A stretch of 30,924 nt of DNA, taken from the NCBI GenBank assembly GCA_964016885.1, contig CAXHJY010000939.1:1-30924 (forward strand), read 5' to 3'. Origin of the DNA: Eledone cirrhosa (lineage: Eukaryota). Positions 1-29,758 of this stretch are shown piece after piece. The translations under genes and the position numbers were made by a program. The notes beneath the pieces were generated by a model. It was not told where the DNA came from. It worked only from the letters and a program-made list of their open reading frames with translations, and searched no databases. Position 1 is the first letter of the stretch. Each line of letters starts with the position of its first letter.

Positions 1-9520
<9,520 letters not shown>

Positions 9521-9957
9521 AAAACTGGTAACTTGTATCACATGGATATTGAAGATTATAATGAGTTCATATATAAAGAACTCAGGAAAAATTATAAAAA
9601 ATCTAATAATGCGTCACTCACCAACATCAACAACAAAACACACAACATAGTAAAAAAACTAAACATTGAAGATAGAACTGAACCTTTGGCATTGAAAAGA
9701 CCACACTTCAACCTGAAGGATCATAAATCAAACTTTAACTCAAATCCTTCTATAAGACTTATATGTCCCTCCTAATCTGATATTGGAATAATTAGCAAAA
9801 ACATTTTGGATAGAGTCATCCCACAAATAAGAAAACACGTTAATTTACCACTCTGGGAAAACACTTCCCATGTAATTAACTGGTTTAAAAATATTAGATG
9901 TAAATCTTCTGCTTCATTTCTACAATTTGATATAGATAATTACTATTCTTCTATATC
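9521..9957 (+). pseudogene. Internal RT fragment of a Nematis-like PLE (fragment F)
   Basis: [73 protein letters not shown] is colinear with element D ([39 protein letters not shown]). In-frame TAA at 9773-9775; (TA)n on both sides. Confidence 0.88.
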
Positions 9958-9988
<31 letters not shown>

Positions 9989-10002
9989 CTACCTAGACAG
10001 CC

Positions 10003-11682
10003 ATGAGCTTGGATGTGGTGTCACTGTACCCATCCATTAACATTGATTTTCCTGTGAAAAGATGTGTGGAGATGATCATTGAGAGTGAGGTGGAGTTCTG
10101 CGACGTCGACACAGACGAACTGTGCATCCTACTTAGACTTACCTACGACACTGACTACCTAGACAGCCATGAGCTTAGATGTTTCTGCCCTAGTAGACCT
10201 ATAAGAGGTAGATCCCCCACCATAACCTCAATGGCTAAAAAGACTCCCATAGGAAGGTGGATTGGGTGGACCAAAGCTATACGGACCCCCCAAAACACTG
10301 ATCAGGTAAGAAAAATGGTCGCACATGCAATAGGGGCCAGTATCAAAACTACCCTAAAGGGCCACATATTTAAGTTCAATGAGAAAATCTACACCCAAAA
10401 TGAGGGAGCAGCCATCGGCGTCAGCATAGCTGGTGATGTTGCCAACCTTTTCATGGTATGGTGGGAAAGGAGACTTAAAGATCTCCTTAATGAAAGCTCC
10501 ATAGACCTCATCATGTACTCTCGTTATGTAGACGATATCAATATAGTTATAAGAACACCCCCACTAGAGAGCACTAACAAGTTTGATTTAGAACGTAGCA
10601 CAATGGAAAACATCCAGCAGATAGCTAATTCCATACACCAGAGTATAACTGTAACTATAGACTTCCCTTCCAAACACCCTAACAATAGACTACCTGTATT
10701 AGACACAGAACTCTGGATTAACACTATAGACGAGAGAGCCCAAATTCTCCACTCACACTATGCTAAACCCATGGCCTCCAAATACCTGATACTCAAAAAC
10801 TCAGCAATGTCCAGTAGTGCTAAGTCTAATATTCTGATCGCAGATTTGGTACGAGTGATGAAGAATGTGTCCAGCATGTGCGACCCAACAGAAATGGAAG
10901 GACACATCCAACACTTCATCAACCGCATGCAGTTCTCTGGCTACAACCAAAGAGACAGAGTCAGAGTATACGAAGGAGCCATGGAAAAGTATAAGACCCT
11001 CATAGAACTGGACATGAAAGGAATTTGCCCACTATACAGGAGCAAATCATGGAATAGCTTAGATAGGGCTAGACATAAGATAGGGAAGGCCACGTCATGG
11101 TACGACAACCAGAGATATCAGAGTGTCATGTTTGTGGACGCCACCCCTGGAGGGAAATTAGCTAACCAGTGTAGAAAGGCCCTGAGAAAGACCCACTTAA
11201 AAATAAAGGTGGTAGAAAAGCCAGGAACCACCATAAAATCCCTGATCAGCAAAACCTACCCTTTTAAGAAAACCCACTGTACCAATAGGAAATGTATCAT
11301 ATGTAAGGTGAACCCCCGGATAAACTGTAAAACTAGAAACGTAGTCTATAGCATAAGATGTACAGAGGGTACTTGCAGAAACATGACAACAACATACATA
11401 GGTGAGACAGCTCGTAGCATAGGTGAAAGGATAGACCAACACTGGGGGGAACTAAAAGGACGAAAAAACGGGTCAGTACTATACGAACATGCTAGACAAC
11501 AACATGACGGTAACATAGACAACATAGAAATTAGAATAATATCTAAACATAGGAATGACCCAGCAGATAGGCAAATCAGAGAGGCCAGTGAAATAGAAAT
11601 TAGAAGACCAAAGCTAAACAGAAAGAATGAGTGGAACAACAACAACACCCAAACAAACAACACTGACCTAAGAGAAGTATAA
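10003..11682 (+). CDS. PLE reverse transcriptase (from motif A) + CxxxxCxxC linker + GIY-YIG endonuclease, N-terminally truncated
   Basis: SLDVVSLYPSI (motif A), QNEGAAIGVSIAGDVANLFM (B'), YSRYVDD (C), LPVLDTEL, CTNRKCIIC, NVVYSIRC..C..YIGETARSIGERIDQH..H..H..RQIREASEI..LNRKNEW. Uninterrupted 559 codons. Confidence 0.93.
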   Translation: MSLDVVSLYPSINIDFPVKRCVEMIIESEVEFCDVDTDELCILLRLTYDTDYLDSHELRCFCPSRPIRGRSPTITSMAKKTPIGRWIGWTKAIRTPQNTDQVRKMVAHAIGASIKTTLKGHIFKFNEKIYTQNEGAAIGVSIAGDVANLFMVWWERRLKDLLNESSIDLIMYSRYVDDINIVIRTPPLESTNKFDLERSTMENIQQIANSIHQSITVTIDFPSKHPNNRLPVLDTELWINTIDERAQILHSHYAKPMASKYLILKNSAMSSSAKSNILIADLVRVMKNVSSMCDPTEMEGHIQHFINRMQFSGYNQRDRVRVYEGAMEKYKTLIELDMKGICPLYRSKSWNSLDRARHKIGKATSWYDNQRYQSVMFVDATPGGKLANQCRKALRKTHLKIKVVEKPGTTIKSLISKTYPFKKTHCTNRKCIICKVNPRINCKTRNVVYSIRCTEGTCRNMTTTYIGETARSIGERIDQHWGELKGRKNGSVLYEHARQQHDGNIDNIEIRIISKHRNDPADRQIREASEIEIRRPKLNRKNEWNNNNTQTNNTDLREV

Positions 11683-11959
11683 ATAAGTAAATAAAATAAA
11701 ATAAAATAAGATAAATAAATACATACACAAGCACAATAACAACAAGCACATAAACACACACTAGTCACCCAGCAGACACAACACTATACACACTAGTCAC
11801 ACATCACACATAACACTATACACACACGCAAACGCATGCACAAAGAAGACAAAATAACATAAGATAAACAAACAAGCAAATAAATAAATAAATATATAGA
11901 CAGACTGAACAAAAAAAATGGCGTAGACATACAACACAACAGGAGGAACAATGAATATA

Positions 11960-12002
11960 ACACCACTGACGATGTTGCAGATGTGCAACGAAAGATTTGT
12001 GT
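11960..12002 (+). ncRNA. Minimal type I hammerhead ribozyme-like motif (element A)
   Basis: CTGACGA (11966-11972), stem II GTTGCA/TGCAAC, GAAA (11990-11993), then GATT. Stem I is imperfect (ACACCA/TGTGT with a bulge). Confidence 0.55.
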
Positions 12003-12215
12003 AAATTATGTAAACTATATATATGTGTTTCTGTCTATATTGTATCTGTATTATTTTTGACCGTTTGTCAGTCAATGGCAACATTGAGGACCGAGTAAGT
12101 TAGATCGCAGATATAAAAGACAGCGAGAAGCGAAAACCAACCAAACAGTGAGTGTGTTCTGTTATTAATTCTGGCAATATTACGCAAATATGACCCTCCC
12201 CAAATATAACAATAT

Positions 12216-12491
<276 letters not shown>

Positions 12492-12577
12492 TTATGTCAG
12501 GTCACCAGTTGGTGCTACTGGTAACATGTATCCCAGTACAACCTGTCTCATGGTCGGGTCGTTGGCGACTAAACTGG
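12492..12577 (+). ncRNA. Candidate HDV-like ribozyme at 5' end of RTE-derived element (also 26583-26668)
   Basis: P2 CCAGT(12533-37)/ACTGG(12573-77), L3 CC with GG after CATGGTC, P4 TCG-TTGG-CGA, J4/2 C-TAA, J1/2 hairpin ACCAGT/ACTGGT. P1 only partial (TTATG/CATGG). Confidence 0.4.
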
Positions 12578-13133
12578 CAACCCCACCAAGGTTTCTTGGT
12601 GAGGAGGGTGACTTTGGACATCCTGCAGGACTAAAAACAAAACCTGTCAAAGGGCAAAGGAGCTCTTAAGAGTCAATGGCCATCCAAAATCACCGGGAGA
12701 GATGACCCCTTTAGCCTTAGTCAAGGCAGAATTCTAGGAGAAGGAAAACTCTGATATAACACCTGCAACCCTGATGGTATCCAATGATGTTGACTTGTTC
12801 TTCTTTTTGGTAAATAGCATCTTGGTTAAGAGAGTGGGACTGGCTTTGTGCAGTGCCTTTGCTCACTATAAAAGCTTCACGGCACAGGCATTGCTTTATA
12901 TCTGGAGATCTCTCTGCACTTGTCCTCACATGGGCCCAGCACTATGTGTCAATGATTGTCCTACCATGGGCCTAGCACTATGTGTCAATGATTGTCACAG
13001 GTGTAGTGTTTGTACCAGAGGTTTCAAGTCGCTGGCTGGACTAAAAAGTCACACTCGTTCAGCGCTTCGGTAGGGGTTATCATACATGGATGTAAAGTAG
13101 TGGCCGTACTCGAAAACGAGTTGGCAGCCACCA
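12492..13133 (+). mobile_element. Non-autonomous RTE-derived (bipartite SINE-like) element, copy 1
   Basis: Highly similar copy at 26583-27195 with the same ends. RTE-5'UTR-like GGAGAAGGAAAACTCTG, remnant C2H2 finger [17 protein letters not shown] then stop, 3' hairpin GTGGC..ACTCG-AAAA-CGAGT..GCCAC. Internal ~36-bp tandem duplication at 12921-12996. Confidence 0.72.
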
Positions 13134-13490: not shown

Positions 13491-13510
13491 TTATTAAAAT
13501 AACAGATTAA

Positions 13511-13561
13511 AGTTTAAGCAAAGAATCGCTGCTTTCACCCTTAACGGGATCTTCTGAAACT
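13511..13561 (-). ncRNA. Degenerate type I hammerhead (element C)
   Basis: Minus strand reads AGTTT-CAGAAGA-TCCC gttaa GGGT-GAAA-GCA..TGC-TT-AAACT. Three stems form but the core reads CAGA instead of CTGA. Confidence 0.5.
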
Positions 13562-14473
13562 AACAAAGTCAATCTGTAAACGCAGAACTGGATATTTCAA
13601 AAAACGTTGCAACCGGAGGAAGACAGGAAGACGATACTTTGGTTCGTGGTAACGTTCGCTGGCAAAGAACGGGAAAAAAACGAATAATACGTCATTAATA
13701 GGAGCGGTGAAAAACAATTACGCGCAAAGACAGAACCACGTTTATGGTATAAAAGAGGTCGTAGACTAATGTTCTCTTAGGTGGTGCATAGAGACCTTCC
13801 CTGGCAATGAACGAAAAAACGAAGATAATGAGTCATATGTGGAGCGTGGAGAACAATAGCACGCAAAGACAAAACCACGTAAATGGTATAGCAGAAGTCG
13901 TAGACTAAAATTAATCTCCGCTACAGAGTTAAGAACCAGGTAAATAAATACAATACAGAAGTAATAGAAACAAATAAATACATACATGCAAACAGATACG
14001 TACATACACAAGCATACGCAAAACCTTACCATAGGTATACAAAACCACGCACATATAAATATGTGTGTGTGAGTGTATGCTTGTATACAAATAAATAAAT
14101 AATTATATCAACGTATATGAGTAAATAAATACGTATATAACAAGCGCACACGCATACCTACATATAAATACACGAATGTTCGGAGACGTAAGTCAACTAA
14201 AACAAGAAGTACACATATACACACACCCACCATACGTACGAACGTGCATACTCACGCAGACGCAAAACTCCCGTATCCACATAGCCAAACCCTAAATACC
14301 AGACTATGTAAAAATTATACGCCATAACAGTCAAATATACGTACGAGAAAGTATACATACCTTCACAAAACGTACGGGTAATATATACTTACCTATGCAA
14401 ATAAGTAAAGGAATAAACAAAACATATACTTAGCTCCCACATCAAGACGTAACATATCCACGTATAGGTCGTG

Positions 14474-15106
14474 CTATCCGTTAGGGTATAACGTGGGGCT
14501 GTAATACAGGAAAGTTTTGTGCAATTTATGTTTACAAGCCGAAATTGCCTCAGATTTTTTGTTTAAGATGTGGTCTGTGGCGTAGAGTATTTCCAGGGCC
14601 TCAGCGGCGCAGAGGTTACATGGTCTTTTATTTCCGTTATACGATCTACCCCTAGCTAGGATCTCCCAGTGTAACTTATATTGGGTGTGGTTATATTTTA
14701 GACTCCAGATATAAGCTGAAAGTGACGTCATATTCCTTCTTAGAGGGTAGCGAAAAGAATGGGTCTGCATGTAAAGACGCTGCTTGAAACTATTGGCGAT
14801 TAACCCTATGTAGGCCCTATGGGACGCGGGTGTTACAACCTTACATTTGTAGACAATGTTACTAGAGAGGCATTTCCCGGATAGGGGGCAATGAGCCCGA
14901 TTCCTACAATTACAGTTAGTACTAACTACAGGGTTGCACGTGTTCCTACAGCTAGGTAGTTTAGCTAAATTTGAAGCTGTGATGTTATGTGAAAGGTTAG
15001 GAGTCGTAGAGTAATAGTATTTCTATTAAAAAATTTACTATATTTATGTGTAGGGGGAAAATGCTTCGTAATAAGGGAAAGAAAGATCTTAGCTAATGGT
15101 GTGGCC
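14474..15106 (-). pseudogene. PLE C-terminal thumb/linker + GIY-YIG endonuclease remnant (frameshifted)
   Basis: FLSLITKHFPPTHKYSKFFNRNTI / YSTTPNL..CNCRNRAHCPLSGKCLSSNIVYKC..YIGL..SFKQRLY..LSAYIWSLK..WEIL..CNLCAAEALEI..CKH; homologous to element D. Confidence 0.88.
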
Positions 15107-15242
15107 AGCAGCGATTCTTTGCTTAAACTTTAATCTGTTATTTTAATAAATATTTGCTCTACGGTTCTTATATATTTGATATATATTTTCCTTATCGAGC
15201 CCTCTTTGGATTTTAGTCTTCAATTTTATTATTATTACTATA

Positions 15243-15916: not shown

Positions 15917-16137
15917 TTCGTTTCTGAATTTGTTTAGCAAGATTCTTTATCTGAAATCGTGTGTTGAAACCGATATTGTTATACTTTGGGAGGGTCATGT
16001 TGCCAATAAGAAACACACGCACCATTGCTTTCACTTCAATTTATTATATATTTATAAATTTATAAATTTACAAATTTACAAACTTATAAATTTCTGGTTG
16101 GTTGGTTGGTTCCACAACCAGATAGTTGTTTATATAT

Positions 16138-16182
16138 AGTCATAGTCCTTTCGTCACAAACTCTGTGTCCTCTTCAGTGACT
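16138..16182 (-). ncRNA. Minimal type I hammerhead, inverted arm of B
   Basis: Minus strand: AGTCA-CTGAAGA-G-GACACA gagtt TGTGAC-GAAA-GGAC-TA-TGACT. Perfect stem I, one stem II mismatch. Confidence 0.8.
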
Positions 16183-16607
16183 GGGGATTCCTTTCTTTGT
16201 TTCTGTGCCTTTCCTTTCTTCTATCCTACGCCATTTTGTTTCTGTGTGTGTGTTGTGTGCTCAGTTTGCGCATGCGCCACATCCGGGTGTCCGTGTGTGT
16301 TTGTGTTCATTTATCTATTTGATTATTTATTTATTTATTTATTGTTGGTTGGTTGTTTGTTCTATGTGTGTGTGTGTTTTCATTTTGTCCTGTGTGTGTT
16401 TTCATTTTGTCCTTAATTGTAAGTTGTTTGTTCTATGTGTGTGTGTGTTTTCATTTTGTCCTGTGTGTGTTTTCATTTTGTCCTTAATTGTAAGTTGTGA
16501 TGTTGCTGTTCCACTCATATTTTCTATTTAATTTTGGTTTTAATTCTTTTATGTTTACTGCCTCTGTAATTTGCCTAAACATTGCGTCTTTTCTGTGTGT
16601 GAACATA

Positions 16608-17846
16608 GGCGACATAGCTAACTTATTCATGGTATGGTGGGACAGTAGACTTAAACAAAAACTTAAAGAACAATTAGAAGACAGTTTAACCCTGATAATG
16701 TACTCCCGCTACGTAGATGATATAAACATCGTAGTTAAGACACCCCCACTAAAGAACAGTCAGGAACTAGAGAAAAACACAATGGAAAGCATCCAGCAAA
16801 TAGCAAACTCCATCCACCAGAGCATTAGAGTTACTATAGACTACCCAAGTAGACACCCCAACTATCGATTACCTGTACTAGACACAGAGCTCTGGTTAGA
16901 TACCATTAACAACCAAAAACAAATCCTCCATTCCCATTATGCCAAACCCATGACTTCCAAACATCTGATCCACCGAAACTCGGCCATTTCGGACCATACC
17001 AAAATAAACATACTGATTGCGGATTTGGTACGGGTGATGAGAAATGTGTCCCGCATGTGCAACCCCGAAGAACTAGAGAGACACATACAACACTTCATCC
17101 ACCGTATGCAGTTCTCTGGCTACAATCAGAGAGATAGAATCAGAGTGTATAAAGGAGCCAGAACCAAATGGGAAAAAATGGTAAATAATGACATAAATGG
17201 GACCTGCCCCTTGTATAGGAGCAAATTTTGGAATAGAATAGAAAGAACTAGGAACAAGGCCAATAGAATAAACTCATGGTATGATAGCAATAAATACCAG
17301 AGTGTAATGTTCATCAATACAACCCCTAGAGGCGAACTAGCCTACAAATTTAGAAGGGCCCTAAATAAACATAATCTCAATATTAAGATAGTAGAAAGAC
17401 CAGGTACCTCCGTAAAAACACTTATTAGCAAGACATACCCGTTCCAAAGACCCTCATGTATAGATAAGAAATGTATAACCTGTAAAATAAGCCCCCATAT
17501 TAACTTTAACTGTAAAACTAGAAATGTAGTGTATAGCATAAGATGTACTGAAGGACAATGTAGAAACAAAAATATAGTGTACATAGGTGAGACAGCTCGT
17601 AGTATAAGGGAACGAATAAATGAACACCGGCGAGACCTCCAAGATAATAAAGAATCATCTGTGCTCTACCAACATGCTAAGATAGAACACAGGGGTAGAT
17701 TAGAGAACATAGAAATAAAAATAGAATCCACACACAGAAAAGACGCAATGTTTAGGCAAATTACAGAGGCAGTAAGCATAAAAGAATTAAAACCAAAATT
17801 AAATAGAAAATATGAATGGAACAGCAACATCACAACTTACAATTAA
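16608..17846 (+). CDS. PLE RT (from motif B') + GIY-YIG endonuclease, 5'-truncated
   Basis: GDIANLFMVWWD, YSRYVDD, CIDKKCITC, NVVYSIRC..YIGETARSIRERINEH..LNRKYEW. The first 37 codons of the called ORF (16497) come from the inverted arm and junction. Confidence 0.92.
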   Translation, partial: GDIANLFMVWWDSRLKQKLKEQLEDSLTLIMYSRYVDDINIVVKTPPLKNSQELEKNTMESIQQIANSIHQSIRVTIDYPSRHPNYRLPVLDTELWLDTINNQKQILHSHYAKPMTSKHLIHRNSAISDHTKINILIADLVRVMRNVSRMCNPEELERHIQHFIHRMQFSGYNQRDRIRVYKGARTKWEKMVNNDINGTCPLYRSKFWNRIERTRNKANRINSWYDSNKYQSVMFINTTPRGELAYKFRRALNKHNLNIKIVERPGTSVKTLISKTYPFQRPSCIDKKCITCKISPHINFNCKTRNVVYSIRCTEGQCRNKNIVYIGETARSIRERINEHRRDLQDNKESSVLYQHAKIEHRGRLENIEIKIESTHRKDAMFRQITEAVSIKELKPKLNRKYEWNSNITTYN

Positions 17847-18071
17847 GGACAAAATGAAAACACACACAGGACAAAATGAAAACACACACACACATAGAAC
17901 AAACAACCAACTAACAATAAATAAATAAATAAATAAACAAATAGATAAATGAACACAAACACACACAGACACCCGGATGTGGCGCATGCGCAAACTAAGC
18001 ACACACACACAGAAACAAAATGGCGTAGGATAGAAGAAAGGAAAGGCACAGAAACAAAGAAAGGAATCCCC

Positions 18072-18116
18072 AGTCACTGAAGAGGTCACAGAGTGTGTGA
18101 CGACAGGACTATGACT
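18072..18116 (+). ncRNA. Minimal type I hammerhead, direct arm of B (core GAAA mutated to GACA)
   Basis: AGTCA-CTGAAGA-G-GTCACA gagtg TGTGAC-GACA-GGAC-TA-TGACT. Confidence 0.75.
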
Positions 18117-18203
18117 ATATATAAACAACTATCTGGTTGTGGAACCAACCAACCAACCAGAAATTTATAAGTTTGTAAATTTGTAAATTTATAAATTTAT
18201 AAA

Positions 18204-19017
18204 TCTATATATATAAAACTGTGGTTGTCTGTCTGTCTATCGATTTTTGGCACACATCTCCTCTTAGAATCTCTCACGGAATTGCACCGAAATTGCTATA
18301 CTTGTACATTGAGCCCTAGCGAAGACATTGGAAAAAAATATTTCAAATTGACCCGCCCTATCTGACGAAATCGAATATAATGTATCGATTTTTGAGCGTA
18401 AGTGATCAGTTATTTCCCTTTGTTCTGTTTACATTGAGCGTCTTACGTAAAAAATTACGATGGCTTTCTCAGCGTTTAAAATGACATTAACACAATACAC
18501 GAACAGTTGTCGAGCCAGCAAAATTTTGACCTGCAAAATTCATCAGTTCGAACACTAGGCTTCCGTTTTGCTTCATTTCCATTTAAAAGCATTTTAAAAC
18601 AATATTTTTACTTGAAAACAAGTCTATTTAAAGACTACGTAAAACAAGCAAATATTTCAGGCGTGCAGACAGACAGTCGTGCAGAGAGGTGATATAGGCG
18701 TGCAGACAGACATAACTGATAATTTGGTTACGCTAATGTTTTTCTCTGCGTTGCAGTGTTTACATTTTCGATCTTTGTTAATAAATAACCAGTGCAGTTT
18801 TTATCCCCAGCATCCTCTTTTGTTATAACATTCGGGTTATCGTTATGTTTTCTTAACTTCATAAGGCATATTGTTGGTTGAGGGAATATTAATCAAAAAC
18901 ACCACATGCAAGTCTGCACAGTAGACACTACAGTTTTTAAGCCAAAAAAGAAACTTAACATTGTAACTTTAACACAGCTACTGAGCGACCTCGAGCAACG
19001 CCGGGCTTTACTGCTAG
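18204..19017 (+). mobile_element. Non-autonomous Helitron (814 bp)
   Basis: 5' TCTATATATATAAAA followed by GTCT repeats, subterminal imperfect hairpin CCTCGAGCAACGCCGGG, 3' CTAG. Inserted between A and T with no TSD; the empty site AATTTATAAA|TATATAATAA is seen in the inverted arm at 16041-16060. Confidence 0.9.
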
Positions 19018-19096
19018 TATATAATAAATTGAAGTGAAAGCAACTGGTGCGTGTGTTTCTTATTGGCAACATGACCCTCCCAAAGTATAACAATAT

Positions 19097-20200
<1,104 letters not shown>

Positions 20201-20303
20201 GAAGAGAAACATAGAATATTCGAAAATATTCTGTATGTTTATAATAAACATTTCGAAGACCCAATCGCTATAGAATAGAATACGTCACGTATTACAATTT
20301 GAG

Positions 20304-20392
20304 ATTCTCGATAAAAGCAAGGGAAGTAACCTACGCGTTTCATTCTTATTAGAAATCATCAGGATTACATATCCAGTGCTTTTATCGAGAAT
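20304..20392 (-). ncRNA. Type I hammerhead ribozyme, retrozyme unit 1
   Basis: Minus strand: ATTCTCGATAAAAGCA..GTAATC-CTGATGA-T TTCT aata AGAA T-GAAA-CGCG-TA^GGTTAC..TGCTTTTATCGAGAAT. 6-bp stem I plus 16-bp distal helix; palindromic ACGCGT stem III. Confidence 0.87.
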
Positions 20393-20615
20393 GACACAGC
20401 TAGAGACTTATAGAATACTTAGCTGTGTACAGGAACTGGTTTGAAAGAGCGGTTGCCGGTCCGGCAGAAATTAGAATTTGGATATAATGCTCTGAAATAG
20501 CGATATATATGTGAAGACAAACATAGAATATTCGAAAATATTCTGTATGTTTATAATAAACATTTCGAAGACCCAATCGCTATAGAATAGAATACGTCAC
20601 GTATTACAATTTGAG

Positions 20616-20704
20616 ATTCTCGATAAAAGCAAGGGAAGTAACCTACGCGTTTCATTCTTATTAGAAATCATCAGGATTACATATCCAGTGCTTTTATCGA
20701 GAAT
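20616..20704 (-). ncRNA. Type I hammerhead ribozyme, retrozyme unit 2
   Basis: Same sequence as unit 1, +312. Confidence 0.87.
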
Positions 20705-20927
20705 GACACAGCTAGAGACTTATAGAATACTTAGCTGTGTACAGGAACTGGTTTGAAAGAGCGGTTGCCGGTCCGGCAGAAATTAGAATTTGGATATAAT
20801 GCTCTGAAATAGCGATATATATGTGAAGACAAACATAGAATATTCGAAAATATTCTGTATGTTTATAATAAACATTTCGAAGACCCAATCGCTATAGAAT
20901 AGAATACGTCACGTATTACAATTTGAG

Positions 20928-21016
20928 ATTCTCGATAAAAGCAAGGGAAGTAACCTACGCGTTTCATTCTTATTAGAAATCATCAGGATTACATATCCAG
21001 TGCTTTTATCGAGAAT
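20928..21016 (-). ncRNA. Type I hammerhead ribozyme, retrozyme unit 3
   Basis: Same sequence as unit 1, +624. Confidence 0.87.
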
Positions 21017-21190
21017 GACACAGCTAGAGACTTATAGAATACTTAGCTGTGTACAGGAACTGGTTTGAAAGAGCGGTTGCCGGTCCGGCAGAAATTAGAA
21101 TTTGGATATAATGCTCTGAAATAGCGATATATATGTGAAGACAAACATAGAATATTCGAAAATATTCTGTATGTTTATAATAAACATTTC

Positions 21191-21375
21191 GCAAGGAATT
21201 GGGCATATCAGAGTATTGACAATATCATACACCTAAACAACATATGTACTTGTCTATACCATACTAATTCAAACTGCCTGAAGAGGTCACAGCCAAAGAT
21301 GGCTGTCACTGAAATATATATAGCAGTAATAAACGAAGCTAAATTGTAATCATTTGACTTTTATTTAACTTTATT
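21191..21375 (+). repeat. 5' pseudo-LTR of D
   Basis: Direct repeat of 25295-25479. Confidence 0.95.
21273..21327 (+). ncRNA. Type I hammerhead in 5' pLTR of D
   Basis: ACTGC-CTGAAGA-GGTcACAGCCA aaga TGGCTGTcACT-GAAA-TATATA-TA^GCAGT, immediately followed by AATAAA. Confidence 0.88.
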
Positions 21376-21529
21376 TTACACTACTCCGGAGTAACCAAAC
21401 CAACCTGCGCACTCCGTCGAGTGCTCCAGCCTGCATACTGAGGTGTTGGTATACAACCAACATAAACTCAAAATCTATCTAGCTCCCACACGGGTTGAGC
21501 GCTTCAAACAGTAGCGGACCTAAGTCACT

Positions 21530-24205
21530 ATGGATAAACTGGCAACCTTAGCGTCACTGAAGGACATCCCCCTACCTGATAAACGAGAATACACCAGTGA
21601 TCTCATCAAGAGTACGGACTCCCTCATCCGTAGGATGAGATGGAAGGCGTTCCACTTCGAAAGAGGAACGCAGAAAACTATAAACACAGAAAACATGGAG
21701 TACCTTTTTCGATCAAGGAGGAATCCCCCCCATAACAGACTAATGGAGGAGTTTGAAAACGAGATGATTAACATCATATCCAACCTCAAATTCTCCGGAA
21801 ACCCAACCAGAAGTCAGGAGTACCTCAGATACCTGAGAAACCGGATTACAGTACTTAAAGGGACAACTGGAATACTTGTCCATGCTGACAAAACAAACAA
21901 CCTCTACAACATGAACACTGAACTGTACAATAAGCTAATCCTCAGGGAACTGAGGAAGTGCTACAAAAAACACCTGGATTTACCCTGGATGAGATCAATG
22001 CCACAGCTTACAGGATTATATCCAGAATCGGCATAGAGGACAGGACGGCCCCATACCAACCAAGGGAGCCGCGGATTACCCTTAAAGACCACAAGTCAAA
22101 CTTTGAGTCCGACCTCCCTGTCAGACTAATAGCCCCCTCCAGATCTGACCTAGGGATCGTCAGTAAAAGAATACTGGATAGGATTTTGCCCAAGCTTCGG
22201 AAAAAAACCAAATTACAGCAATGGTCATGCACGAGAGAAGTAATAGAATGGTTCAAAATACTGCATGAGAAAAGTAGGACCAGCTTTATACAACTGGACA
22301 TCGCAAGCTACTACTCCTCAATCTCACCCATAGTACTTAATAAGGCCCTATTTTTAGCGATGTCCAATACGGACCTAACCCGAGAAGAGGTGAGCATCAT
22401 CCACGCCGCAAGAAAGACCTTAATCCGCTTCGATGGAGACCTGTGGACCAGGAGTGATTGGCCAAATAACTTTGACATCACGATGGGCTCCAGCGACTCA
22501 GCGCAGGTAACGGACCTGGTTGGGCTCTACCTGCTGAAGCAGATAAAAGATGAAATCCCCTGCCTGGGCGGCGGATTATATCGTGACGATGCTCTATTCA
22601 CAGTACATGACCACAGCACCAATATGTTGGAGGGTATGAGGAGGCGTATTCGCCATTTCTTTAAGAACCAGGGGCTCAGCATAGAAATAGACCCAAATAG
22701 GAAGGTAGTTAACTTCCTAGACACCACCCTAAACCTGAACACCGAGCAATACTACCCCTACCACAAGCCCAACGAGAAACTAGTATATGTTAACGCCAAA
22801 TCAAACCACCCTAGATCCATAACCAAGGCAGTGGTGAAGAGTGTCTCGGACAGGATCTCCAGCCTGTCCGCAAGTAAGGAAATATTCAACAACCACGCGG
22901 AATATTACAACGCAGCTCTAAAGAAGGCGGCACATGGACAACATATAACATATAGTCCGAAAAGCCGGGAGGTGGATAGCCCAACAGACACCCACAACCG
23001 CGTTACCAGAGGGGGGAGGGCGAACCCTAACAATACAGGCAGAGCAAAATCAAATAGGCACCATGTACCAGACACCACCACACGGGCGGTGGGGACTAGT
23101 GCGCTTGACCACGAGATGGAGCACAATATGAGTAGCAGTCTCAGGCGTGATGCTAACTACCCCAGGACGGACAACCCCAACCGCAGGACACGTGGGGGGG
23201 GGGGAACGGGCGACCACCCCACGATGGATCTCCCGGGGCAGACAACAACCACCCCACAAATCCGGGCCGTGAAGATAACAAAAAGTATAGAGCCCAAAAG
23301 GGAAGCAACAGTGCGGAAACCACCAGCAAACCAACAAATCTCCAACAAATCACGAAGCCCCCAACCCACACATATAGGAGGAGACACCGACAAATCACGT
23401 GGTACAACCCACCCTACTCAGCGGCCCTAAAGAAAAGCTTGGCCCGATTGTTCTTTGGAGCACTTGACAAATGCTTCCCGAGGGACCACAGATACCACAG
23501 GATCTTCAACAGACACACTGTGAAGCTTTCGTATTCCACCACGAGAAATTTGGCCCAACACATAGCTAGCATCAACAGAAGTAGGCTTAAAAACCACACA
23601 CAACCAGAAGATAGCAATACAAACACTCAGCAGAACCATGTGAAAGGAGGGAAGGGGGTCCCAGAGCCCACCCAAGAAACACAAACAGACCCAAGGACCC
23701 CCCACCGAGCATGGGGGAAGACCAACATGTAGCACATAATGAGAACCCTAATCTAAGCACGCAGAGGCCGCCCACCCTCTGCAACTGTAGAAACCCCGAA
23801 TCATGCCCCCTTGGTAATGAATGTCTCAAGAAGAACATAGTGTACGGTTGTAGGGTTAAAACTCCCAACTCCGAACACCTCTACATAGGAGCCACATCAA
23901 CGAGCTTTAAGGACCGCTGGTACAACCATCGCCATTCATTCAAGAAGGAGGCCAAAAGGAAAAACATAGCTCTCTCCGACCTGATCTGGAAGCTTAAGCT
24001 GGACAGGACCCCATACTCTCTGGCCTGGTACATAATCAGGAAAGTACCATCCGATAAAGGGGGATCTTGCATATGCAAACTATGCCTGAATGAGACCCTC
24101 GAGATACTAAGAGGTGGAAGCGGCCTGATAAACCCCAGAACCGACTTCTTCGGGACATGCAGACACCTTAGAGCCTGGACATTTCTCAAAATATATGGAC
24201 AGTAG
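21530..24205 (+). pseudogene. PLE RT + GIY-YIG ORF broken by three -1 frameshifts
   Basis: [140 protein letters not shown]. Confidence 0.92.
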
Positions 24206-25294
24206 CAACACAAGAAGATGTGAACTCCCCTCAAGCTATAGGGACTTCTACAGAACATGAAAACACCTCTCGGCCAGACCTCCCTCAAGCTATATGGACA
24301 ATTACAACACCCTAGGTTGTGAACTCCCCTCAAGCCATAGGGAACAACCCAGGCGGAGCAGACACCATGATAGCCTAGACATAGAATCGGACACAGCCAT
24401 AATAATCTGGCCAACATCTATAACACAAACACTTTTAATTTACCAGATTTCTGACTTTAAAGTTCCAATCTTAAATCTTGATTTCTCTTTATTAATTTGT
24501 TATTTGTTTTCTGCCCTCTTCACTGTATAACCTTATATTTATTTTAAGTTGAGATAGATTATAACACAAACACATTGAATATCTCATCTTAACATCTTGT
24601 ATCATACCAATCTATCCAACATATTCTGACCTTGAGATTGGTTATAGCACACACACACTTTATCCTACATTATTTCTCACTTCTCCATATACATTATCAT
24701 TACTTTTTCACCAATCTCCCATTTACTCTTTATTCTTTATTCTCTATTTATTTATTTATTTTCAAATTACACAAATTATATTAATTATTTTATTTTATTA
24801 TATTATTTATTTATCTTCTGTTTTCTTCATTTATTGCCTTATATTTCTTCATATACATGAAATAACCCCCCCCCCCCACTACGATGGTGGCGGGCGGGAT
24901 GAAGAGAAAACACAAACTGAATACTTCTAAATTGTTAGCAGTAGCAAGGTATAAGCTGACCACTACAACAACAACAGTACCAAAATAATGGTGGAGGTCA
25001 AATGTACTGAACAATAGCAGGCATAAACACTACAGGGAGCCTCACCCCAGAAAGAATTCTATAGACTTCTGACTGAGGAATGCTCTCAGAACTGAACAAT
25101 GGGAAGTTTGACACATTTTTTGATATTTTGTTCCTTCAACACCTTGTCCCTTCTACCATTTTATCAATTTTTAAGCTAACTCCAACAATGACAACACTAA
25201 TAACTGACCAATGAGAGGAGAAGGGGACCTGTGACACGAAAATTCGTTTGTTTGAATTCATATGACTCCAGTTCCCCAGTGAATTAACAACCCA

Positions 25295-26582
<1,288 letters not shown>

Positions 26583-27195
26583 TTATGTCAGGTCACCAGT
26601 TGGTGCTACTGGTAACATGTATCCCAGTACAACCTGTCTCATGGTCGGGTCGTTGGCGACTAAACTGGCAACCCCACCAAGGTTTCTTGGTGAGGAGGGT
26701 GACTTTGGACATCCTGCAGGACTAAAAACAAAACCTGTCAAAGGGCAAGGGAGCTCATAAGACTCAATAGCCATCCAAAATCACCGGGAGAGATGACCCC
26801 TTAGCCTTTGTCAAGGCAGAATTCTAGGAGAAGGAAAACTCTGATATAACACCTGCAACCCTGATGGTATCCAATGATGTTGACTTGTTCTTCTTTTTGG
26901 TAAATATCATCTTGGTTAAGAGAGTGGGACTGGCTTTGTGCAGTGCCATTGCTCACTATAAAAGCTTCACAGCACAGGCATTGCTTTATATCTGGAGATC
27001 TCTCTGCACTTGTCATCACATGGTACCATGGGCCCTGCACTATGTGTCAATAATGGTCACAAGTGTAGTCTTTGTACCAGAGTTTTCAAGTCGCTGGCTG
27101 GACTAAAAAGTCACATTCGTTCAGCGCATCGGTAGGGGTTCTCCTACATGGATATAAAGTAGTGGCCGTACTCGAAAACGAGTTGGCAGCCACCA
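26583..27195 (+). mobile_element. Non-autonomous RTE-derived element, copy 2
   Basis: Matches 12492-13133. Retains a complete C-x2-C-x12-H-x4-H ([23 protein letters not shown]). Confidence 0.72.
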
Positions 27196-27433
27196 TATAT
27201 ATATATATGTATATATATGTATGTATATATATATATGTATGTATATATATATATGTATATATATATATGCATATATATATATATGTATGTATATATATAT
27301 GCATATATATGTATATATATATATATGTATGTATATATATATGCATATATATGTATATATATATATGTATGTATATATATATGCATATATATGTATATAT
27401 ATATATGTATATTTATGTATATATATGTATATG
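27196..27433. repeat. (TA)n microsatellite with TATG/TGCA interruptions
   Basis: Direct inspection. Confidence 0.96.
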
Positions 27434-27450
27434 TAGGAGGTGAGTTTTAT

Positions 27451-27907
27451 TGTAATAATCTCTCTAATTGCAATTGCAATTGCAATTGCCCTATTAAAAA
27501 TAAATGTCCTCTCACAACCATTGTCTTGATAAAAACTTAATTTACGAATGTAAAGTTATAACTGACACCAATTCCTTCACCTATTTCGGCTCCACTTCCA
27601 CCTCTTTTAAAGCTCGTCTTTATAACCATCATTCGTCTTTAAATACAAACTTAAAAGAACCAACACGGCTCTCTCAGAACTCATATGGTCCTTGAAAGAC
27701 AAAAACATTAAATATAGCATCTTTTGGAAGAAGGTTTCTTCTGCGTCTACATTCTTGAACAGTTCTCTATCTAAAATCTGCAATCTCTGTCTAAATGAAA
27801 AAATTACCATTATCTCTAATCTAGATTGTATAATAAATAGACGCACTGACTTGTTTTCTATCTGCTTGCATAAATTCCATAAAACCTTTCACAAAGTATA
27901 CAGCTAA
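27451..27907 (+). pseudogene. GIY-YIG endonuclease remnant, two frameshifts
   Basis: [11 protein letters not shown] / [31 protein letters not shown] / LSELIWSLK..W..CNLCLNEKITI..INRRTDLFSICLH. Confidence 0.88.
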
Positions 27908-28851
27908 TATTCAATTCTTTATCAATTTAGAATCTTTTTCTCAAAGGCATATATATACACTTCTTTTAATAATATACCCATCTTTCTACCTTATTCTATA
28001 ATACTTGTTTACTCATTACTCTTACTCTATATCACCTTGTAAAAATCCTTCGTAAACATATACATTTTTTTGACGCTAGATTATTCATCCTCAATTCATT
28101 ATCCTTTCTCCCTATCATCTAACTCATTATTCTCAATACATTTTCTTTTTCTTCGCACATATTATCAAATCCTTCAATATACAAACCTTAACTTTACATT
28201 ATTTTCCTTTTCGTTAATTTTCAAATTCTATAATACTTGTTTACTCTTTCTACATCACCCATATTTATCACTTCCTTTTCTTCTCTTCTAATATCTAACC
28301 CCTAATCTGTACCATTTCTCACTCTTGCCTAACATAGAATCAATTATTACATAATACAACACATTCTTACTCTATATCACCCTGTAAAAATCCTTCGTAA
28401 ACATATACATTTTTTTTTTACGTTAGAATATTCATCCTCAATTCATTATGCTTTTCTCCTTATCATCTAACTCATTATTCTCAATACATATTAACTCCTT
28501 CTTTTTCTTTGCACATATTTTTCTCTTCGTTAATTTTCGAATTCTTTTAATTTATACATTATCTTCCAACGGTTTTCAACCTCTCTATGTAAAACAATAT
28601 ATCTTTCTCAGTTATAAAAACTATCTCTCTCTCTCTCTCTATCACCCATCTCTCCTATCTCATCCTTCCTCATTATACTCCTCCCTCTCCACCTTCACTC
28701 TCATCTCCTTTTTTATTTTTTTTTCACCCCCCCCCCTCTAAATAAAATATTTTTCCCAATATCACACATCAATCTAAAACTACTTCTCATATGTTGATTT
28801 AAAACTGAACCATCCACAAGTGTTTTGTAACCTCCATATCATGTCCTCCTG

Positions 28852-28918
28852 TTTTATCTGATGAAAACACAAATATTATTGCATGATGATATTTGTTTTT
28901 GAAATGCGCATAATAAAA
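28852..28918 (+). ncRNA. Type I hammerhead with long stem II (element E)
   Basis: TTTTAT-CTGATGA-AAACACAAATATTATT gcat GATGATATTTGTTTTT-GAAA-TGCGCA-TA^ATAAAA; palindromic ATGCGCAT stem III. Confidence 0.82.
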
Positions 28919-29022
28919 TACATGGAACTCCTTTAACCATCTTTTGTTCTTATATATTATATATATGTATATATATATATGCATATATATGTATATATAT
29001 ATATATATGCATATATATGTAT

Positions 29023-29758
29023 ATATAATATGTTGAGAAGGTAACACACCAGAGAGAGAGATTTTTCCCTGTATTATTGATAACGCACTATATATCTCTC
29101 TCTGGTGTGTTACCTTCTCAACATATTATATTTTAAAGGGCTCAGGATCTCTTCCCCTTTGAGCACATTATTTACAGGGAATAACGACGGCCTATGCCTC
29201 CGTTAATTTATCGTGATATTTCGCTCCTAATAACAGCCTTTCCTATCTCTGTTTGGTTGAGCACACTTCTCTGAGTGGCTTTGGGCTGCCCTTTCTAGCA
29301 GTTCGTCTCTCAGAGGCCACTGGTTCACTGCCCTTAAACACGCTGTGACTTCTCTCTCCCACGTGTAGCTGGACAGTCAATTGTAAAATTCTCTTAGTGT
29401 TGTCTGAAATGTATGGCCTTACACACGCTGCTGAACCGAGACTAGACCATTTCTTTCAACAAATTTTTTGGTGAAACATATCTTTGGATTTGTACGTGTT
29501 ATATAGTTATAGAGGTATTTATTTACGCTTTAATTTATATTTTTAATTATCGTGTCTATAGTCTGCCTTTCATAGGTTATAGATTCTATACACTGGTGGT
29601 TTTTTCCCTGTATTATTGATAACGCACTATATATCTGTCTCTGGTGTGTTACCTTCTCAACATATTATATTTTAAAGGGCTCAGGATCTCTTCCCCTTTG
29701 AGCACATTATTTACAGGGAATAACGACGGCCTATGCCTCCGTTAATTTATCGTGATAT
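29023..29758. mobile_element. Unclassified non-coding element: 539-bp unit in 1.3 tandem copies plus an inverted terminal piece
   Basis: Direct repeats at 29062-29219 and 29601-29758 (1 mismatch seen). 29023-29059 is the reverse complement of 29095-29131; (TA)n flanks. Confidence 0.6.

Follow-up and report, generated by a model that had tools for sequence, protein, structure and literature searches.

A candidate hammerhead retrozyme array joined 5' to 5' to a Hydra-type PLE among (TA)n insertions

Metazoan non-LTR retrozymes are known from coral, mussel and axolotl (Cervera and de la Pena 2020, PMC7229834). PLEs have been put forward as their movers, with arguments from co-occurrence, shared hammerheads and pLTR homology (PMC7229834, PMC7761336, PMC11722881, bioRxiv 10.64898/2026.07.22.740005), and 24 of 57 Xenopus retrozyme families resemble known TEs, mostly PLE ends (bioRxiv 10.64898/2026.07.22.740005). 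PLEs themselves typically have an adjacent inverted, 5'-truncated copy at their 5' end (PMC8557442; PMC3846280). The origin of these head-to-head structures, by self-priming or from a second template, is not settled in the accessible text of PMC3846280 and PMC8557442. Here we analyse a locus in which a candidate retrozyme occupies the place of that inverted copy. The literature that we searched, which lay largely outside subscription papers and supplements, holds no retrozyme/PLE compound insertion and no cephalopod retrozyme; PMC13282606 mentions neither ribozymes nor hammerheads.

The window (the whole stretch of DNA that was analysed, 30,924 nt) carries a tandem array with the following parts:

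20200-21191, minus strand: candidate retrozyme array, 992 nt, 3.18 x 312 nt, 5' end at 21191 and 3' end at 20200
20304-20392, minus strand: type I hammerhead of copy 1, core 20362-20332, predicted cut 20332/20331, 16-bp stem I extension
20616-20704, minus strand: type I hammerhead of copy 2, core 20674-20644, predicted cut 20644/20643
20928-21016, minus strand: type I hammerhead of copy 3, core 20986-20956, predicted cut 20956/20955
20332-20643, with a second at 20644-20955, minus strand: 312-nt monomer or circle, as a prediction only
20815-20822, also 20503-20510 and 21127-21134: sole (AT)4 tract of the unit, with its equivalent at the array 3' end at 20191-20200

Tandem Repeats Finder reports a period of 312, 3.2 copies and 99% identity, and base-by-base comparison of the copies finds a single difference, G versus C at 20206, in copy 1. 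The unit has a GC content of 35% and is non-coding, with stops in all six frames of the circularised unit and a longest stop-free run of 59 aa. The preliminary description had counted about 3.2 near-identical non-coding units; both points hold (3.18 copies of 312 nt with one mismatch, and stops in every frame). It had missed the context: the array does not stand free but is fused to a Hydra-type PLE.

In a descriptor search, minus-strand cores of the form CUGAUGA...GAAA...GUA were present in 3/3 full units, where a minus-strand type I hammerhead with cuts at 20332/20331, +312 and +624 had been predicted. The same descriptor found a type I hammerhead in 0 of 3000 dinucleotide-shuffled units. 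Beyond a 6-bp stem I and an internal loop, 16 further base pairs form an exact helix; the 4-bp stem II carries the loop AAUA and, at the base, a U.U mismatch; stem III is ACGCGU. The palindromic stem III and the 16-bp stem I helix had been noticed earlier, the U.U of stem II had not. The preliminary description had given minimal type I HHRs as the known metazoan form; the hammerhead here, which has a helix III and a lengthened stem I, is of full-size type I, unlike the minimal PLE type. Because a whole-window Rfam scan was dominated by (TA)n matches to miRNA models, the scan was repeated on sub-regions. The Rfam/Infernal comparison suggested in the preliminary description gave a weak match, Hammerhead_HH9, which at 19.9 bits lies far below the gathering score (52), with E 0.27 for a 5.3-kb query and 0.0054 for one of 105 nt; Hammerhead_1 is not among the Rfam matches listed, which give the best clan member only. 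Five hairpin pairs had been claimed in the unit. Four are exact reverse complements and the first is imperfect; one exact pair, ATCGCTAT/ATAGCGAT, makes a long-range helix 233 nt apart.

According to our folding, in which energies are nearest-neighbour estimates with tertiary contacts not included, the circular unit has an MFE of -72.1 kcal/mol with 60% of its bases paired (z -4.1), a value matched by 0/40 shuffles. The plus strand also folds well (z -5.9), and the circular MFE fold puts the catalytic core into wrong pairs. The idea of a highly structured circle is thus upheld against all 40 shuffles, but the plus strand is equally good and the predicted circle hides the core. In a two-unit transcript, both the centroid and the MEA structures are a symmetric double hammerhead, in which the ACGCGU helix between copies has P 0.58-0.77. 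The energy needed to impose the catalytic fold is 2.9 kcal/mol in the double hammerhead versus 9.4 in the single one, so that the predicted folds favour the dimer mode claimed earlier. Axolotl retrozyme hammerheads cleave better as dimers, one having a U.U in helix II and the other a palindromic helix III (PMC7229834). In Xenopus, 8 of 9 retrozyme dimers gave no cleavage (bioRxiv 10.64898/2026.07.22.740005). In addition, position 1.2 is G in the array and A in most copies of the family, so stem I would be able to slip one register onto C3. Given the U.U in stem II, the G at 1.2 and the Xenopus precedent, we regard cleavage of the array hammerheads as uncertain. Among 16 changes (15 from the 40 listed of 169 variants, plus 20206), 8 fall at unpaired positions, 3 leave their pair intact and 5 disrupt the best predicted pair; of these 5, the change at 20954 restores a Watson-Crick pair in the catalytic register.

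Twenty sequencing runs contain part of 20201-21400, and none is on record as RNA; among 23 runs listed, no RNA run contains it, which is uninformative on expression. Three of the twenty, X1, X5 and X7, and in addition X21, were compared with 20740-22240, X1 and X21 being from organism A. In X1, depth is 1e5-7e5 over the unit versus 7e2-3.5e3 over the PLE ORF, and in X21 about 2400-3700 versus 8-25. This excess of about 100-fold or more is a rough value and not a copy number. The unit family is very abundant and has many variants. X5 and X7 each gave one 340-nt contig, equal to a 310-nt period plus a 30-nt overlap, and the X7 contig 'goes back 312'. Since these contigs fit a closed 310-nt period, the unit stands mainly in head-to-tail arrangement. 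Both runs are labelled with other organisms, contain the unit and the pLTR, lack the ORF and show the majority alleles of organism A; their signal may be trace DNA rather than independent hosts, and we did not count it as host range. Large classes of loose ends in X21 (20798, 20923, 21096, 21266 and 21345) lie at or within a few bases of AATT sites and were set aside as library artefacts. By exact pattern, the unit occurred 0 and 0 times in metagenome contigs and 0 times in viral contigs, and the search found no relatives of it outside the sequencing runs.

The array itself carries alleles that are rare in the family: at most 37 of 3767 X21 reads have its allele at 20878, and 117 of 3939 at 20886. 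Both are carried by all array copies, which argues that the array descends from one monomer. The identity of the units had been attributed to rolling-circle reverse transcription. The rare alleles show the single-monomer origin, but identity does not prove rolling-circle reverse transcription here. The tandem anatomy, a hammerhead in each unit and an abundant head-to-tail family in the runs agree with the earlier retrozyme call. We conclude that the 312-nt unit is very probably a retrozyme. On all features that sequence can test, it appears as one more family of the known metazoan non-LTR retrozymes.

On the plus strand, the array is followed by a second element:

21191-25478, plus strand: complete Hydra-type PLE as judged from its sequence features, 4288 nt, with its own pLTRs and hammerhead
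21191-21374, plus strand: 5' pLTR, 184 nt, 2 differences from the 3' copy, hammerhead 21278-21322
25295-25478, plus strand: 3' pLTR, hammerhead 25382-25426, abutting (TA)n
21530-24205, plus strand: PLE ORF divided into four frame pieces and covering RT, linker and GIY-YIG; low complexity at about 23020-23380

The ORF product is 33-55% identical to its 17 best homologues, among which the only two named matches are octopod proteins, so that a cephalopod host is plausible. The Hydra-clade motif set comprises RWK, DKT, CxCX5C, CxxC/CxH around the E and N of the EN, plus GIY-YIG at the C-terminal end (PMC8557442). The ORF has RMRWK, ADKTN, CNCRNPESC (the CxCX5C linker) and CKLC...E...N...CRH, and its C-terminal GIY-YIG match (E 4e-4) is below the cut-off. 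The RT piece matched no RT model in Pfam and nothing in PDB, and its probable RT identity rests on motifs and homologues. Together with the canonical hammerhead and the (TA)n insertion, the motif set marks the neighbour as a Hydra-type PLE. Its ORF is broken in three places, including one in an A-run of variable length among other copies; either another copy would have supplied the protein, or the breaks arose afterwards or are assembly slips. Other observations on this element are an R/T/G/P-rich low-complexity stretch at 23020-23380 between RT and EN, reminiscent of Adineta Penelope ORF inserts, and an imperfect 100-nt tandem at the end of the ORF (24143-24343). Stem III of the PLE hammerhead (21315-21322) is TATATATA, which is also a two-way TATA-like motif, and if the pLTR were active in antisense, the hammerhead strand of the array would be transcribed. 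In X1 and X21, the pLTR and 5' UTR (21199-21480) match the retrozyme in depth and exceed the ORF hundreds-fold. In X1, 31 contigs stop at 21478 in (TA)n, and others at 21360 and 21378. The RNA template of the PLE family extends beyond the 3' end of the copy in the window, and a second non-autonomous family may be built on the PLE hammerhead.

The unit is not a pLTR of this neighbour, because the PLE has pLTR hammerheads of its own and no similarity to the unit. BLAST between the two found no match, and the local score of 26 compares with a shuffle mean of 25.6. That assignment was rejected on the absence of shared sequence, the opposite strand and the 184-nt pLTR with hammerhead that the PLE already has. 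In a related reading, the unit would be no independent retrozyme but would have arisen when the pLTR of another coding PLE, elsewhere in the genome, was tandemised, which would be compatible with co-insertion. Published Xenopus families often match PLE ends (bioRxiv 10.64898/2026.07.22.740005), and low-copy parents would escape notice in X5 and X7. However, the unit closes on itself in these two runs while the PLE pLTR there continues into the 3' UTR, only one loose end of the unit occurs among the X1 contigs listed, and the unit has no match above shuffles in 8 blocks of the window. We regard a tandemised pLTR of another PLE as very unlikely.

The array and the PLE meet as follows:

21191: 5'-to-5' junction of array and PLE, one common G, no TA between
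13491-15238, 15917-19092 and 29028-29754: blocks with an inverted copy of their own end, from sequence comparison within the window

The 3' ends of both elements face (TA)n. Among nine other non-microsatellite blocks of at least 400 nt, three show a head-to-head form with their own inverted end, and the array occupies the slot usually taken by the PLE's own inverted copy. One difference in 992 nt of array compares with two in 368 nt of pLTRs (binomial p 0.18, a weak test with three differences only), and the ages of array and PLE are compatible. We also considered assembly error in this microsatellite-rich region, in the form of a chimeric join or a miscounted copy number. The frame breaks of the ORF include the one in the variable A-run, and no contig or read among those listed spans 21191. 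Against this, the sequence at the junction is unique and non-TA, and private differences mark the 5' pLTR (two relative to the 3' pLTR) and array copy 1 (one). These features make an artefact highly improbable.

At least ten insertions in (TA)n lie within the window, and in such a nest close neighbours are expected. The others include the following. A second PLE family has two copies, 70% identical, at 9990-12211 and 16494-19092, with a common 3' terminus before (TA)n; its hammerhead cores lie at 16177-16143 on the minus strand with GAAA, with a counterpart at 18077 on the plus strand with GACA and another at 11966. Three pieces resemble the same homologues as the Hydra-type PLE, namely an RT-piece fragment (9522-9956), a minus-strand EN that has an inverted end and is extended by about 90 nt (13491-15238), and an EN piece whose 3' region is long and which has a hammerhead at 28858-28912 (27413-28957). 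The short element at 29028-29754, which has no long ORF, shows direct repeats of 154 nt (99%) and, on the left, ends in an inverted piece of 35 nt; neither strand contains a CUGANGA core, and the element is PLE-like in structure but lacks a hammerhead. An unclassified element of about 620 nt is present twice (92%) in (TA)n, in the same orientation (12492-13131 and 26584-27193).

This nest is the ground for an alternative in which array and PLE entered a long (TA)n tract separately and their 5' ends were united later by a deletion, or by an inversion that also flipped about 350 nt of the tract. The two share no sequence, and the flipped tract beside the array is the expected trace of an inversion of array plus tract. 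Such a history requires young sequences to have been broken at 21191 with no TA left behind, and its outcome would match the head-to-head form of the three other blocks. We consider independent insertion unlikely.

The polarity of the microsatellite adds a second line of evidence:

19845-20199, minus strand: C-interrupted (TA)n (G on the array RNA strand), abutting the array 3' end, with the flip zone at about 19760-19845
25479-26583: right (TA)n tract, G-interrupted on plus

Ten of the 11 tracts (13.7 kb) are G-interrupted throughout on plus, and the sole C-type run, of about 350 nt, is next to the array. Three other minus-strand element ends have G-type flanks. The bias to G on plus extends across 1-30225 irrespective of the orientation of the inserted elements, and palindromic TACATATGTA and TACATGTA occur around the polarity flip (19760-20199). 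A tract of opposite polarity abutting the array weakens the case for rolling-circle reverse transcription at this site; a DNA template or a linear RNA with read-through would account for it no less well. The C-type segment could come from linear RNA running into a (UA/UG)n flank, from DNA-templated capture, from inversion or from slippage from a seed, and we slightly favour the first. Several simpler derivations were rejected. The interruption patterns of the left and right tracts do not match (a target duplication is unreadable in (TA)n); the longest common pattern is 2-3 tokens, at shuffle level, both for the two tracts read as one long target duplication and, at the resolution used, for a C-type tract that would mirror the G-type part. 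Reiterative copying of the unit AT tract would be expected to yield G-type on plus. The array is also not a remnant split by the left-hand insertion, as the window contains no more unit sequence.

Capture from DNA deserves separate mention. Here a free (TA)n end would have invaded another locus in reverse polarity in the same event, while the PLE integration was being repaired, copied its tract and 992 nt of array and joined the PLE cDNA, so that the retrozyme was not reverse-transcribed at this site. This would account for the opposite-polarity tract without three hammerheads staying uncleaved, and arrays are very abundant as donors. On the other hand, the usual inverted partner of PLEs is attributed to the element's own transposition (PMC8557442). 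We judge a DNA template to be quite unlikely.

The explanation that we favour, at somewhat less than even chances, is that retrozyme RNA was co-integrated by PLE machinery at a (TA)n site in one event with the PLE. In this model, the transcript of the three-hammerhead array would cut as a double hammerhead to give 312-nt monomers and then circles. The PLE endonuclease would cut both strands of (TA)n; one cut end, on the bottom strand, would prime on PLE RNA and the other, on the top strand, would use retrozyme RNA, and the two 5'-truncated cDNAs would be joined at the 1-nt overlap at 21191. The template for the array may have been an uncleaved multimer read into a (UA/UG)n flank, for which we have a slight preference, rather than a circle primed at 20200. 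Read-through into such a flank would explain the tract of opposite polarity. In work with a purified PLE protein, both target strands were cut and extended, AT-rich DNA was preferred and the RNA used was for the most part uncleaved (PMC11167929). The array 3' end falls at the sole (AT)4 tract of the unit, by our rough estimate a coincidence of about 1 in 30. PAc begins reverse transcription at sites without homology to the target (PMC11167929), so this position need not mean annealed priming. Two joints in X1 contigs, 20822->21283 and 21474->20815, break at the two edges of the unit's (AT)4 tract and lead into the PLE family end; each is seen in one contig (depth 9.4 and 5.8), the shorter side of 20822->21283 being 24 nt. 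If the two come from one locus, they fit a PLE end fragment in the unit AT tract with an 8-nt duplication, and the unit AT tract would then also be a target of the PLE family. Several considerations count against co-integration, among them the broken ORF of the neighbour, the uncertain cleavage and the fact that none of the contigs or reads listed crosses 21191. This is one locus, and a meeting of two 5'-truncated ends is also left by a deletion between independent insertions. The unit has no sequence in common with the PLE, unlike the Xenopus families that resemble PLE ends. Moreover, no cross-mobilisation between two PLE types is recorded in the accessible text of PMC3846280.

As a broader and more tentative proposal, Hydra-clade PLEs might mobilise unrelated retrozymes, priming both cut (TA)n strands on two RNAs and fusing the products, with the retained (AU)4 as priming site and self-target. 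If true, the autonomous partner of an animal retrozyme would be named from a junction, and a second RNA molecule would be the source of the inverted 5' copy of PLE insertions. With a retrozyme occupying the inverted-copy slot of its Hydra-type PLE, the locus provides a named candidate mover and a junction signature that can be counted in long-read assemblies. The junction also bears on how PLEs build their head-to-head structures.

Compared with the described systems, the unit resembles metazoan non-LTR retrozymes in its tandem, non-coding organisation (150-450 nt, GC <50%), a type I hammerhead per unit and a self-paired predicted circle (PMC7229834). It shares the U.U at the base of helix II with axolotl HHR_Amex2, and the weak palindromic helix III with HHR_Amex1, for which dimer cleavage is reported and here only predicted (PMC7229834). 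It differs from these retrozymes in its exact 16-bp stem I extension and in being joined head-to-head to a coding PLE in (TA)n (PMC7229834). The pLTR-derived retrozymes of Xenopus are similar in unit size and low repeat number, and PLE mobilisation has been proposed for them; the argument there is co-occurrence and pLTR homology, whereas here it is a physical junction with no homology to the PLE (Li, Clavereau, Pollet, bioRxiv 10.64898/2026.07.22.740005). In-trans mobilisation in Adineta vaga likewise involves unrelated sequence moved by PLE proteins, head-to-head inverted ends and 5' joints with microhomology, but the cargo there lies between cognate pLTRs, while here it lies outside, in the inverted slot and without pLTR sequence (PMC3846280). 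The neighbour, in turn, shares with Hydra-clade PLEs, among which Hydra-1_Obim appears in File S1 of Craig et al. 2021, the motif set, the C-terminal GIY-YIG, the canonical pLTR hammerhead and the (TA)n target (PMC8557442). It departs from them in its length of 4.3 kb, where these elements are generally <3 kb (a tendency, not strict), in the low-complexity insert between RT and EN and in an inverted 5' partner that is a heterologous candidate retrozyme and not its own truncated copy (PMC8557442).
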